This document shows positions 610 through 57,484 of a stretch of DNA of 64,000 nucleotides, one piece after another. A model generated the notes under the pieces. That model made no database searches. It had not been told where the DNA came from and saw nothing but the letters and a program-made list of their open reading frames with translations. Position 1 is the stretch's first letter. Each line of letters begins with the position of its first letter. The position numbers and the translations under genes were made by a program. This stretch comes from Candidatus Thorarchaeota archaeon (lineage in GTDB: Archaea; Asgardarchaeota; Thorarchaeia; Thorarchaeales; Thorarchaeaceae): assembly GCA_963726195.1 (NCBI GenBank), contig CAVSBO010000003.1:32001-96000 (forward strand), written 5' to 3'.

Positions 610-1915
610 GTGAGCTCAATGAAGTACCTGCATGTCAAAGATGTGCTTGATGGAAAATGCGACGGAAAGAGAGTCGCCCTTCGGGGTTGGGTCCACAGGA
701 TCAGAAAGCAGAAAACCATGGTCTTTGTTCTTCTCCGTGACCATTCGGGCGTCGTTCAGACTGTGGTTAAGCAGGGCTCTGTCAGCGACCAAACATATGC
801 AGATGCAGACAGAATGCTCGTCGAGTCGCTCGTTACTTTGGAGGGAGTTGCAAAGACTGACCGGAGGGCCGAGGGCGGTTATGAAGTACAGGTTGACAAG
901 CTACAGGTGCTTCAGTTTGCGGAAGAGTTTCCAATCACCGAGGACCAAAGCGTGGAGTTTCTGAACGACTACAGACACCTCTGGCTAAGGTCGAGGAAGA
1001 TAACCAACATCCTGAAGGTGAGGGACCAAGTCTTCTTCGCCTCAAGAGAGTATCTCCGCAAGAACGGATTCTACGAGACGACTTCCCCGATGTTCGTGGC
1101 CACGATGGGCGAGGAAGGAGCAGACCTCTTCGAGGTCGACTACTTCGGGAGGAAAGCCTACCTCACGCAAACTTCCCAAATGCATCTCGAACCTCAGATA
1201 GTTGGCCTTGAGAGGGTATTCACCCTGGCCCCTTCCTTCAGAGCTGAAAAGTCGCGAACGAGGAAGCACTTGACAGAATACTGGCATCTTGAGGTTGAGG
1301 AAGCTTGGTGCGACCACGAAGCCAACCTGAAGAGACAGGAGGAGCTGAATCAGCTACATCTGCCAATCAGTAGCACAGAACCGAAGTGGGGAAGTGCGAG
1401 AGCTTGGGGTGGACCCAAAAAGGCTTCTAGACGTGAAGCCGCCGTTCGATAGAATCACGTACACTGAGGCGATTGAGATTTGTACGAAGGCGGGCCTTGA
1501 CATAAAGTGGGGCGAAGATATCCGAACCGAAGCAGAGGACATACTAACAAAGGACAGCGACAAGTTCCTCTTTGTCCAGTTCTATCCAAAGGAGATCAAG
1601 TCCTTCTACATGAAGCACAATGACGCCGACCCGCGAACATACAAGAACGATGACCTTCTCGCTCCAAGAGGTTTCGGCGAAATCATAGGTGGCAGCCAAC
1701 GCGAGGACGAAGAATCACGAATCATTGAGAACCTGACGCGGATCGGGGACGATCCGGCGAAGTATCAATGGTACATTGAACTAAGGAAGTACGGGAGTGT
1801 CGAGCACTCCGGTTTTGGCGTGGGCATTGACAGACTAATCACTTGGATGCTCAACTTGGAGCATATTCGAGAGTGTGTGCCTTTCCCACGCGACGTAAGA
1901 AGACTGTATCCGTGA
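610..1915 (+). CDS. asnS: Asparagine--tRNA ligase (one frameshift at ~1348)
   Basis: OB-fold RGWVHRIR...LRDHSG, motif 2 FRAEKSRTRKHLTEYWHLE, GEIIGGSQRE, motif 3 YGSVEHSGFGVGIDRL...PFPR. Removing one A at 1348-1349 joins ORFs 610..1452 and 1394..1915 (QEEL-ISYICQSVAQNR). Confidence 0.93.
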
Positions 1916-1957
1916 GCTCAGTGGCAAGATGTTGCAAAGTGATCTTCAGAAAGTTGT

Positions 1958-2185
1958 CTATTCAAGGTCACGTTTCATCCTGATTAGCTCACGCTGATGA
2001 ACTCGCACCATATAGACCGAGAACGCCAAACCCACAAGCCCGGCAGCTACTCCGACGAGCCACAGGTCGCTTGCTAAGGGGTGATGCAGCCATTTCGTGA
2101 GTAGGTATACATTTAGACTAAAGAAGAAAACCCCGAAGGTCACAATGACTGAATAGAACGACCAAGGCATCTTCACTTTGCTCAA
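1958..2185 (-). CDS. Small two-TM membrane protein
   Basis: 75 aa with two hydrophobic helices and a basic C-terminal tail. Confidence 0.65.
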   Translation of the reverse strand: MSKVKMPWSFYSVIVTFGVFFFSLNVYLLTKWLHHPLASDLWLVGVAAGLVGLAFSVYMVRVHQRELIRMKRDLE

Positions 2186-2289
2186 TCACTGCACCAAGAT
2201 TAATCGCAACGGTTTAACATAAAGAGTTTTGCCGATGTTGCTAGATGACTTCTGGGTGCATTATCGTATCACATCGTAATTGGCTCTCA

Positions 2290-3201
2290 CTAGGTCTCTG
2301 CGTCTTGGTCTGTGCCCTCAGGGGCAGTTTGTTCTTCTTTCTCAGATTCAAGCGGACTGACGAGAAGACCTTGAGCGGTGACTTTGAGCACAACTCTCTT
2401 TTCAATGCCTGCGAGCCTTCTCACGGTCTCCGGGATCACCATTCTTCCCTTTGCATCAATTTCACTTATGTCACCGTAGAGCACGTGTCTCTGACCCTCA
2501 ATCAAGCCATCTCTGATACGGAGAACACGACTAGCATATTCAGCAACTCTCGGATTGTGAGTCACGTTGATGATTGTTGTTTCAAAATCCATGTTTATTC
2601 TCTTTAGGGCCTCCATCACCATTTCTGTGGTTTCCGTATCAAGTTCGCCGGTCACCTCATCTGCGAGAAGCATTTCCGGCTTGTTGGCCAACGCCACACA
2701 TATCGCTACTCTCTGGTTTTCACCACCCGATAGCTGGTGCGGCTTGTGCTGCATTCTGTTCTGTAAACCCATTGTCTCTAGCAACATTCGTGCTCTCTCA
2801 TCTGCAGCCTGCCCCTGCACACCTGCCAGCTTCATTGGGAGCTTGACATTTTTGATGGCCGACAAACCAGGAACCAGATTACCCGTCTGCCAAACAAACC
2901 CAACCATGCGCCTTCTATAGATCATTGACCTGTAATCGTCCAAGAGCGTTATATTATGGCCATCGAAAAGGACTACACCGGCCGTTGGTTTGTCAAGAGC
3001 TCCGAGCAACTTGAGCAACGTAGACTTGCCGGAACCTGACGGACCCACAATGGAGAGAAACTCTTTTGGTCTGACCTCAAAGTCAATTCCTCTGAGTGCA
3101 ATGACCTCTTTGGTTCCTCGACGGTAGACCTTCATGAGATCCCTCACAATGACCTTGTAGTCTTTTGCAATCTGCTCCAGGTCTTCTGACATATCATTCA
3201 T
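2290..3201 (-). CDS. ABC transporter ATP-binding protein (LolD/FtsE/MacB-type) with a C-terminal AbrB/MazE-like domain
   Basis: Walker A GPSGSGKST, LSGGENQRV, LLADE, VTHN. C-terminal EIDAKGRMVIPETVRRLAGI is an AbrB-type swapped-hairpin signature. Confidence 0.9.
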   Translation of the reverse strand: MNDMSEDLEQIAKDYKVIVRDLMKVYRRGTKEVIALRGIDFEVRPKEFLSIVGPSGSGKSTLLKLLGALDKPTAGVVLFDGHNITLLDDYRSMIYRRRMVGFVWQTGNLVPGLSAIKNVKLPMKLAGVQGQAADERARMLLETMGLQNRMQHKPHQLSGGENQRVAICVALANKPEMLLADEVTGELDTETTEMVMEALKRINMDFETTIINVTHNPRVAEYASRVLRIRDGLIEGQRHVLYGDISEIDAKGRMVIPETVRRLAGIEKRVVLKVTAQGLLVSPLESEKEEQTAPEGTDQDAET

Positions 3202-55553: not shown

Positions 55554-56222
55554 TCAGACGCCAAGTGCTTGAAGCACATCTTTAGGCAGTCTGTCCTTGA
55601 CAGTTGTCGGTTCTGTCAGATAACTATCATCAGCAGGCATCACTAGGCTCCAACCACGATTGGCATATTCATACGCGGTACAGGACGCGAAGCCCAAGTA
55701 CAACCAATCCTCGAGCTGAGGAGGTCCGCCTCTCACGAGGGAGAGAAAGAGAGCAGTGACTATTGGGTGGCTCACGACGGCGATAGACCCACCGATGCTC
55801 TTCTCTGCGATATTGTTCATGCAGTCACCGAATCTGCGCTTAGCAGTGTTGAAAGACTCGCCACCAGGAGGAGCATGAGCCGAATCATTCCACATTGCTG
55901 GAAGACGATCGGTCAGTTGTCTTGGCATCGACTTGCTCTTGCCCAAGGATGCTTCAGATAGGCAGTCCTTGCTTTCGGTCTTGATTTGAAACTCCTTCGC
56001 AAGGATTCCTGCTGTCGCAGCTGCTTCTTTGAGAGGAGATGTGTACACTATCTGGACACCAGAGACTACTCTGGACCTCGCGAGTTCAATGACTTGGTCG
56101 TGACCTCTCTGCGAAAGACTTTCAGGGCTTTCAGGAAGCGTTTCCCCGTGGACTATCAAGTAGACAAGCGTTCTGGCGCCATATGCCTTGGAGATATCGC
56201 GTTCCTGAATGAGATCAAACAT
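55554..56222 (-). CDS. Histidine phosphatase (phosphoglycerate mutase-like) family protein with a degenerate RHG motif
   Basis: YLIVHGET, LSQRG, YTSPL, LSE, PPGGES, VVSHP. Confidence 0.8.
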   Translation of the reverse strand: MFDLIQERDISKAYGARTLVYLIVHGETLPESPESLSQRGHDQVIELARSRVVSGVQIVYTSPLKEAAATAGILAKEFQIKTESKDCLSEASLGKSKSMPRQLTDRLPAMWNDSAHAPPGGESFNTAKRRFGDCMNNIAEKSIGGSIAVVSHPIVTALFLSLVRGGPPQLEDWLYLGFASCTAYEYANRGWSLVMPADDSYLTEPTTVKDRLPKDVLQALGV

Positions 56223-56403
56223 CTCTTTACCCCGCAGGGTCCGTCTTCTGCAATAACGTGTTAATATCCATCACGGAAACAGCCGGATGCCTGAATACTG
56301 CCCATGTTTGGACAAATAGAAGGATAGCCGTGCGACACTCACTGAAGCTCACTAAGCCGACCCACGTCGTAATAGAAGTTGGGAGTTGTACAGAGCACTA
56401 GGC

Positions 56404-56739
56404 TCAGTACACTTCCCTTGGGCTCGATGTCAGTCTGTCGGGTAGTTTTCCACCCTCTCCCTCAACTTCGAGCTCAAACCCAGCTCCGACTCGGCCGCCG
56501 TTACGGATCAGAAATCCAGACTTGGTGATGCCACGCGCTTGGCGCTCGGCTGCCCTTCTGATAATCATGCTGATGTTGGAAGGAACACTCATCAAGAGTT
56601 TCTTCTTCGCATCATCGATTGTCAGGATGATTGATTCGTTGCTGGTGTTCTTAGTAGTTTCTCCGAACTGACTCGTGGTTTGATTGAACTCAAGATGAAC
56701 AGGCATGAGTGGTTTCAGCTCCGGTCGAATTCTGAACAT
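56404..56739 (-). CDS. Single-domain gelsolin-like protein
   Basis: SIILTIDDAKKKLLMSVPSNISMIIRRAAERQARGI...FELEVEGEG follows the gelsolin strand-strand-long helix-strand-EG pattern. Confidence 0.55.
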   Translation of the reverse strand: MFRIRPELKPLMPVHLEFNQTTSQFGETTKNTSNESIILTIDDAKKKLLMSVPSNISMIIRRAAERQARGITKSGFLIRNGGRVGAGFELEVEGEGGKLPDRLTSSPREVY

Positions 56740-56796
56740 TCAGGGGGCTGTCTACGTATTTATATGATATTGCGACGAGCCCTGTCATTATTGGGC

Positions 56797-57484
56797 CTAG
56801 GTTGGCAGTAAATGTGCTGTTCCACAGTGTGGACAGACAACGGCCGATTCTCCAAGTCCCGGAAGAGGCAGAGGAGCTCCACAATTGTGGCATTTCAGCT
56901 CTGTCAGTTCCCTTCTTTCTTCAGGTGTGGCGTTCAGGGTGAATGCGGAGGTAACGAAACCGAACGTCTTGCCAATCCTATTTGCGGCTTGGGCTATCGC
57001 ATTTCTCTGAGCAATGGTCAGAGACCCAAGTCCTATCGACATGAAGAGACTATCAATTGCCTTTCCGATTATCCCGACTGCTCGAGTGGCCTTCCAAGAG
57101 AGAACATCTGCTGTCTGCAACTCGATTAATTCGCTGTCATTGTGCCCCGGGATTTGGTACCCAAACTTCCATTCAACTCTTTGATGTCTGACAGATGACA
57201 GCACTTGATGACAACTGGGACAGACTCAGCTGCCACTCTGTCTTAGCGAACATTCCCTTCCTCGATCGCTTGTCGCCGATTTCATACCAACAACGCTTGT
57301 GCGCCGTTCTTCCACAACTGGGGCATGTGAACAAGTAGTATTTGTCCGGTCTGGCTCTCGCGGCAGACCCCGTATGCGTTTCCGCGTAAGCTAGGTCTTT
57401 TTGCGAGTTGTTCAGGAGATAGTTGCCGCATATGAAGCATGTCTTGCCGTCGAAGTCATTCAGTTTCTTAGGAGCGACTCTCAA
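56797..57484 (-). CDS. C4HC3 (PHD/RING-like) finger protein with a C-terminal zinc ribbon (frameshift at ~57226)
   Basis: CFIC...CPSCGRTAHKRCW...restored WQL-VCPSC; C-terminal CHNCG...CPHCG. Confidence 0.72.

Follow-up and report, generated by a model that had tools for sequence, protein, structure and literature searches.

Motif-specific frameshifts in a Thorarchaeote genome assembly as probable long-read errors linked to DNA modification

The stretch considered here, hereafter the window, comprises 64,000 nt of an assembled Candidatus Thorarchaeota archaeon genome (assembly GCA_963726195.1; contig C3, CAVSBO010000003.1, positions 32001-96000), and it raises the question of why so many of its genes switch reading frame and why they do so at the same few letters. 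The genome (G000) is a metagenome-assembled genome (MAG) of 2.92 Mb in 19 contigs with 51% G+C, with estimates of 88.9% completeness and 3.9% contamination; a glycogen-debranching enzyme encoded in the window assigns it to the Thorarchaeota (Asgard archaea). A preliminary description of the window, made from its letters alone, had listed 16 frame breaks, placed nearly all of them at the word AGCT, and proposed that the genes are intact in vivo and that modified bases had misled the sequencing. The present data indicate that about one gene in five in this assembly appears broken through long-read assembly errors. These errors are probably linked to modification of the DNA, a known artefact, as it is already well established that modified bases cause motif-specific errors in long reads.

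Single-base breaks at a few short words

Breaks were located by comparison with G002, a short-read MAG of the same genus ('Thorarchaeota archaeon OWC5') that is syntenic with the window at ~79% nucleotide identity. Stop-to-stop open reading frames (ORFs) of at least 100 aa from ~1.1 Mb of G002 served as tblastn queries against all of G000, and a break was called automatically where consecutive high-scoring segment pairs (HSPs) of one orthologue lay in different frames. Each call was refined by scanning every one-base repair and retaining those whose translated product aligned best, and at every site of the genome-wide set one base gave a full-length alignment scoring at least 3 per residue. 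The resulting map covers 879 kb of G002-covered coding DNA, to which the genome-wide figures below refer. Within the window, all 16 breakpoints are true frame switches relative to intact G002 orthologues; 12 were mapped automatically by tblastn and the one-base-repair scan, and four (14245-52, 31222-26, 36277-82 and 55391-94) by hand through three-frame comparison. At 10 of the 16 breaks, the distance from the mapped interval to an intact AGCT is 0-6 nt (p=6.5e-8), and these independently derived intervals single out the same ten breaks as the preliminary description, whose coordinates for the words AGCT, AGACT, AGTCT, GAGTC and AGGCT are likewise all exact. Its expectation that chance proximity would be a few percent was right in being low, although the measured rate is somewhat higher: 8.1% among 100,000 control positions drawn at random from that homology-covered coding DNA. 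AGCT itself is ordinary in frequency, with a genome-wide observed/expected ratio of 0.99 and one copy per 213 nt in the window. By type (Table 1; inserted bases in brackets), the window holds seven AGCT[G/T]A insertions, four insertions of A or T between the G and C of AGCT (AG[A/T]CT), two deletions touching AGCT, two ambiguous breaks that are both compatible with an AGCT repair, and one break of a different kind. Among the five breaks at which a one-base fix had been said to create AGCT, those at 5241, 7789 and 20136 are insertions inside AGCT, whereas 29619 and 55391 are the two ambiguous cases. The break in the helicase gene herA, previously called ambiguous, in fact belongs to a second motif, GAG[A]AC.

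Across the covered coding DNA, homology mapping yielded 154 frameshifts, or 0.175 per kb. One base must be removed at 123 of them and one added at 31, making 80% one-base insertions, and among 193 raw candidates the net change was +1 in 136 and -1 in 30. When all canonical k-mers around the sites were compared, blind to motif, with those around 40,000 control positions, AGCT came out at the top of the 136 4-mers (50 observed, 8.3 expected, p=1e-25), an outcome that bears out the genome-wide enrichment anticipated from the window; the enrichment remains beyond the window as well (49 of 142 sites, p=7e-19). Two longer words were also enriched, with AGCTGA at 29 frameshifts (1.6 expected, p=8e-28) and GAGAAC at 21 (1.95 expected, p=1e-15). 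Removal of the extra base at the 123 insertion sites creates AGCTA at 35 (1.4 expected, p=2e-38), AGCT at 20 (3.7 expected, p=1e-9) and GAGAC at 20 (3.2 expected, p=6.5e-11). At several of the sites, the orthologous G002 sequence shows the signatures directly, with T-AGC or AGCT-A at AGCT[G]A sites (T[C]AGCT on the other strand), AGCT at AG[A/T]CT sites and GAGAC at GAG[A]AC sites (GT[T]CTC); AGCT[G]A probably stands for an original AGCTA. Altogether, 67-72 of the 154 frameshifts (44-47%; control 7-10%) belong to the AGCT type and 26-30 (17-19%; control 5%) to the GAGAC type. The statement that nearly all breaks fall at AGCT holds for the window, which happens to be AGCT-rich, but not for the genome. 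Among the sites of neither type, a third signature, GCGG[G]CAG (CTG[C]CCGC), occurs at 7 of 58 (~0.4 expected, p~1e-7), amounting to ~5% of all frameshifts and probably standing for an original GCGGCAG; in the word counts it shows up as GCCCGC/CGGGCA (p=5e-8 for GCCCGC). The affected fraction of each word is small: ~35 of ~936 copies of AGCTA, with the AGCT error at ~2-4% of sites, ~21 of ~2400 copies of GAGAC and 6-7 of ~155 copies of GCGGCAG.

Protein identity to G002 on the two sides of the breaks has medians of 82% and 84%, and one base restores a full-length alignment at each mapped site. No signal of decay or recoding (extra stops, conservation that slackens downstream, or a slippery site with a stimulatory structure) was seen at the breaks, where both flanks are equally conserved and a single base suffices for repair. 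The broken genes include those for a class II aminoacyl-tRNA synthetase, HerA, GTP cyclohydrolase II (ribA), an acyl-CoA synthetase and two FtsX-type permeases. Because of the rate of the breaks, the equal identity of their flanks, the stereotyped single-base indels and the essential genes hit, these sequence comparisons strongly support the view that the breaks arose in assembly while the genes themselves are whole in vivo, in agreement with the preliminary description.

Two other candidates for the cause or the motif were rejected. Homopolymer slippage does not account for the breaks, as runs of at least 4 occur at just 5 of the 154 sites (3%) and G002 shows the same distribution of run lengths. 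CTAG, which repair creates 16 times (2.6 expected), is confounded with the conversion of AGCT[G]AG to AGCTAG and was not retained as a separate motif. As a side observation, G000 has 22% fewer copies of AGCTA/TAGCT per Mb than the G002 sample (1052 and 1342, respectively). This deficit far exceeds the AGCT[G]A frameshifts mapped (~40 per Mb) and could reflect further errors in this word that leave the frame unbroken, or true divergence.

Encoded methyltransferases and the error words

The strongest evidence in favour of modification comes from GAGAC, where the errors agree, independently, with both an encoded methyltransferase family and its target adenine. Contig C17 carries at 62240-64267 (locus L137:643-2670, minus strand) an intact 676-aa ORF that matches TIGR02987 (Alw26I/Eco31I/Esp3I family adenine-specific DNA-methyltransferase) over positions 11-521 of 523 (E=4e-76, 256.9 bits; next model 49 bits) and also matches the Pfam families Eco57I, N6_Mtase and TaqI_C, with a gamma-class NPPY motif (VVMNPPYNRL, residue 254). 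The enzymes Alw26I, Eco31I and Esp3I share the GTCTC core, which is methylated to GAG(m6A)C and GT(m5C)TC, with N6-methyladenine (m6A) on one strand and 5-methylcytosine (m5C) on the other (Bitinaite et al., 1992, as cited in PMC4659465 and PMC3526304), and in the case of M1.Eco31I the methylated base is the second adenine, as in GAG(m6A)CC (PMC4659465). The extra A in GAG[A]AC coincides with the adenine methylated by this family, and it is suggested that GAGAC carries m6A placed by the C17 enzyme. The resemblance to the Alw26I/Eco31I/Esp3I group lies in the near-whole TIGR02987 alignment, the NPPY motif and an error core of GAGAC with a free next base, as in Alw26I; unlike in that group, the score here falls below the model's cut-off and a partner C5 methylase or endonuclease was not found. 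More precisely, the ORFs adjoining the gene hold no domains of an Alw26I-type partner C5 methylase or type IIS endonuclease, and TIGR02986, the endonuclease model, had no match in the genome, a weak search in which control genomes were equally silent. Single-copy homologues at 39-50% identity are present in 10 of 12 family-level Thorarchaeota relatives, with none in G002 with this query. Because no partner lies nearby and the homologues are so widely retained, the enzyme appears to be an orphan methylase that persists in this family.

For AGCT, the preliminary description had proposed a search of the genome for a cytosine methyltransferase of that specificity. The DNA methyltransferases of G000 comprise ~10 PF01555 loci, one Dam-family enzyme, two gamma-class enzymes and one decayed C5 enzyme. 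The search produced four PF01555 candidates of the SPPY type (TSPPY, typical of N4-cytosine methylases), at C3:854263-855018, C3:195697-196572, C7 ~120700-121800 (broken) and C13 ~100700-102000. Comparison of four PF01555 enzymes with the PDB returned generic beta-class matches only (CcrM, M.RsrI, M.MboIIA, an N4-cytosine methyltransferase and M.PvuII), which say nothing on specificity. An M.AluI-type C5 methylase was rejected, as the sole PF00145 match, at C16:149769-150515 (L044), is a decayed pseudogene whose ORF pattern is shattered and which contains five in-frame stops, in contrast to the single-base breaks of other genes. If the cytosine of AGCT is modified, the sequence makes N4-methylcytosine (m4C) set by one of the four SPPY-type enzymes more likely than m5C. 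Small orphan PF01555 methyltransferases that place m4C at AGCT, a recurrent and lineage-wide mark in archaea, are persistent in Nitrososphaerota and Methanomicrobiales (groups HG11, HG16 and HG19; PMC10609329). The present candidates resemble those enzymes in being PF01555 proteins, four of the SPPY type with one conserved across Thorarchaeota; they differ in that no orthology to a characterised AGCT enzyme is established here. Orthology with HG11, the Nitrosopumilales group, was explored as a way to assign AGCT to C3:854263-855018 and gave no assignment. The family of this enzyme, at ~60% identity, is spread among more than 400 genomes of archaea and bacteria, and only stray Nitrososphaerota possess it, a distribution that is not typical of Nitrosopumilales.

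Several further observations concern this inventory. The C3:854263-855018 enzyme (L047:1390-2145:+) is 252 aa long with an invariant N-terminal C-x-C-x3-H-x2-C cluster, and is 87% identical in OWC5, ~70% across Thorarchaeota and ~60% in the more than 400 diverse genomes, a conservation unusual for a DNA methylase. One of the breaks, an AGCT[G]A-type frameshift at C4:214897, falls within a PF01555 methyltransferase gene (C4:214618-215806), so that methylase inventories taken from this assembly undercount intact enzymes. GATC is the most avoided 4-mer of G000 (observed/expected 0.49), and the Dam-family methyltransferase at C3:902653-903522 (TIGR00571, 285 bits) adjoins a frame-broken PF01555 methylase at C3:904121-904874. 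Examples of the third signature stand at C3:761518, C4:246082, C7:111216, C17:740, C17:83128 and C8:16389; GCGGCAG, asymmetric and 7 bp long, is the sort of target that type IIG, type III or BREX methylases recognise, and a PglX-like enzyme is encoded at C3:565548-567125.

Modification and its alternatives

Taken together, these data favour, as the likely explanation, a model in which the native DNA of the archaeon would be methylated at a few short words that the basecaller or the consensus step misreads. The assembly would be a long-read, unpolished one, in which single-base consensus errors break reading frames, and its reads, judging from the assembled letters, may be nanopore reads of native DNA; recent nanopore chemistry without short-read polishing would fit the combination of few homopolymer and many motif errors. 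It has been reported that methylation motifs dominate nanopore consensus errors if they are unseen by the basecalling model, as with Dcm CCWGG and Dam GATC (Wick et al., 2019, PMC6591954), and strand-specific errors have been exploited for motif discovery by Hammerhead (PMC11610603). The errors seen here resemble such native-DNA nanopore errors in clustering at methyltransferase-target words, surviving consensus and being unrelated to homopolymers; they differ in being mostly frame-breaking one-base insertions, in involving three motifs and in coming from an uncultured Asgard archaeon. The indels of nanopore-only MAGs (Sereika et al., 2022, PMC9262707) likewise split genes and reduce completeness at high contiguity; however, those are homopolymer-driven, whereas runs of at least 4 explain 3% of the present sites. 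The earlier proposal that modification underlies the errors is supported indirectly by the GAGAC methyltransferase match, with the amendment that besides AGCT there is at least one further motif, and probably there are two.

A number of points weigh against modification as the cause. About 38% of the frameshifts (58 of 154) are neither of the AGCT nor of the GAGAC type, and insertions dominate here, whereas published modification-linked nanopore errors are mostly substitutions. The AGCT error hinges on a flanking base, being mostly AGCTA, and is of low penetrance. No methyltransferase was tied to AGCT when the four SPPY candidates were compared, and the GAGAC specificity of the C17 enzyme is presumed from a score that does not reach the curated TIGR02987 cut-off of 353.5. 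Much of this could be explained as well by context-bound mistakes of the basecaller or polisher, in which TAGCT, GAGAC and GCGGCAG would be miscalled whether modified or not and the errors would be silent on the methylome. Such an explanation would accommodate a penetrance of just ~1-4% of motif copies, the near restriction of the AGCT error to AGCTA (35 of 123), the excess of insertions over the substitutions usual at methylated motifs, and the lack of an identified AGCT methyltransferase. However, restriction-modification systems classically target two of the words, the genome encodes an intact homologue of the GAGAC-targeting methyltransferase family, the extra A is the very base methylated by that family, and basecaller training sets presumably cover unmodified 5-7-mers in full. 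Pure context bias is accordingly regarded as unlikely, while being the alternative that survives best.

That the indels are real, reflecting a lineage that accumulates pseudogenes or frameshifts by programme at AGCT and GAGAC, is highly improbable. Their presence in the deposited sequence, and nothing further, speaks for it; 0.175 breaks per kb would disable about one-fifth of the genes, including those for the aminoacyl-tRNA synthetase, HerA and GTP cyclohydrolase II, and yet the flanks stay 82-84% identical with no further decay and the same-genus G002 has all of these genes intact. In addition, a completeness of 88.9% is low for 19 contigs, as expected from artificially split marker genes. 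Strain heterogeneity, with mixed haplotypes collapsed into a frame-broken consensus, is just as hard to credit, as the estimated contamination of 3.9% in a MAG would permit such a collapse, but a collapse would neither put a specific base into specific 5-7-mers nor yield 80% +1 events.

Whatever their cause, ~0.18 false frameshifts per kb split about one-fifth of the genes and depress completeness estimates, and mis-annotation as pseudogenes would follow. Gene calls from this assembly need frameshift-aware correction or polishing, for which the three signatures mark the places. If modification is indeed responsible, the pattern predicts, in a form open to testing, that three motifs are methylated in this uncultured Asgard archaeon. 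The chances appear evenly balanced that the error pattern may serve as an indirect readout of a Thorarchaeote methylome, consisting of genome-wide AGCT modification (probably m4C), GAG(m6A)C set by a family-conserved orphan enzyme, and GCGGCAG. Nothing specific on an Asgard or Thorarchaeota methylome was found in the literature searched. Were the AGCT part true, the persistent orphan AGCT methylation of Nitrososphaerota and Methanomicrobiales would extend to the Asgard archaea.

The individual breaks of the window

The 16 breaks are listed in Table 1 with the evidence that places each of them.

Table 1. Frame breaks in the window, in window coordinates, with inserted bases in brackets.
Gene	Position	Strand	Type	Break	Local evidence
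Class II aminoacyl-tRNA synthetase (PF00152 + OB fold)	1347..1349	+	AGCT[G/T]A	one-base insertion, GAGCT[G]AATCAGCT	splits ORFs 610-1452 and 1394-1915; AGCT at 1343 and 1352; tblastn HSPs of the 439-aa G002 orthologue abut at 1347/1349 in different frames (91% and 90% identity)
FtsX-type permease (941-aa orthologue; Pfam FtsX), frameshift 1	4637..4646	-	AGCT[G/T]A	one-base insertion	best repair at 4646, AGCTGA at 4637-4642; placement loose owing to low local identity
Same permease (941-aa orthologue), frameshift 2	5241..5241	-	AG[A/T]CT	insertion inside AGCT, plus strand GAG[A]CTC	removal of A gives GAGCTC; gap in the G002 alignment falls between G and C
Second FtsX-type permease (956-aa orthologue)	7789..7789	-	AG[A/T]CT	insertion inside AGCT, plus strand CAG[T]CTA	repair gives CAGCTA
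AMP-binding (acyl-CoA synthetase-like) enzyme	14245..14252	-	deletion touching AGCT	one-base deletion, A5 run abutting AGCT, gene strand AAAAAGCTC	homopolymer and motif are both possible causes
646-aa conserved hypothetical gene	20136..20137	-	AG[A/T]CT	insertion inside AGCT, plus strand GGAG[T]CTC	G002 orthologue has AGCT at the exact place
256-aa AAA_31-like ATPase	22077..22077	-	deletion touching AGCT	one-base deletion right beside AGCT	HSPs (95% and 93% identity) have the single base 22077 in common
180-aa gene	29619..29621	-	ambiguous	one-base deletion at GAGTC	loss of C from GAGCTC would fit; intact AGCT absent from the 200 nt on either side
FrhB/FdhB-like Fe-S protein	30323..30324	-	AGCT[G/T]A	one-base insertion between two AGCT, plus strand AAGC[T]CAGCTAA	
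GTP cyclohydrolase II (ribA), three codons in	31222..31226	+	AGCT[G/T]A	insertion AAGCT[T]ATC	original probably AAGCTATC; frame 1 MKLIKRED*, frame 2 LSKEKIESL, G002 MKLSKEKIASL
496-aa membrane protein, near N-terminus	36277..36282	-	AGCT[G/T]A	gene strand GCAGCT[G]AGCT	AGCT at 36277 and 36282; original probably AGCTAGCT; removal of G restores LIAA|SFAIVAY
herA helicase (Pfam DUF87/HerA)	43636..43638	-	GAG[A]AC	plus strand GT[T]CTC = GAG[A]AC	G002 reads GAGAC; closest AGCT 101 nt off
670-aa gene, frameshift b	45328..45329	-	AGCT[G/T]A	plus strand CAGCT[G]A, gene strand T[C]AGCT	G002 has ACAT-AGCC; HSPs 88% and 94% identical
Same 670-aa gene, frameshift a	46526..46527	-	AGCT[G/T]A	plus strand AAGCT[G]A	
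1198-aa protein, 15 codons from end	55391..55394	+	ambiguous	AGGCT; one extra or two missing bases	either repair can yield AGCT; two-base repair gives the exact G002 C-terminus length
370-aa gene	57223..57224	-	AG[A/T]CT	insertion ACAG[A]CTCAGCTG	4 nt from intact CAGCTG

A seventeenth break, at ~9560, was considered and rejected, as the weak upstream HSP there corresponds to the non-coding part of a stop-to-stop ORF before its start codon. At the other end of the window, the 370-aa G002 gene has its orthologue match at 57227-57553 and a weak second match at 58134-58439. The ~580 nt that separate the two matches (57553-58134) stand for ~12 residues and adjoin a phosphoenolpyruvate/pyruvate dikinase-like gene; this gap could represent an insertion, a rearrangement or a shadow-ORF effect.

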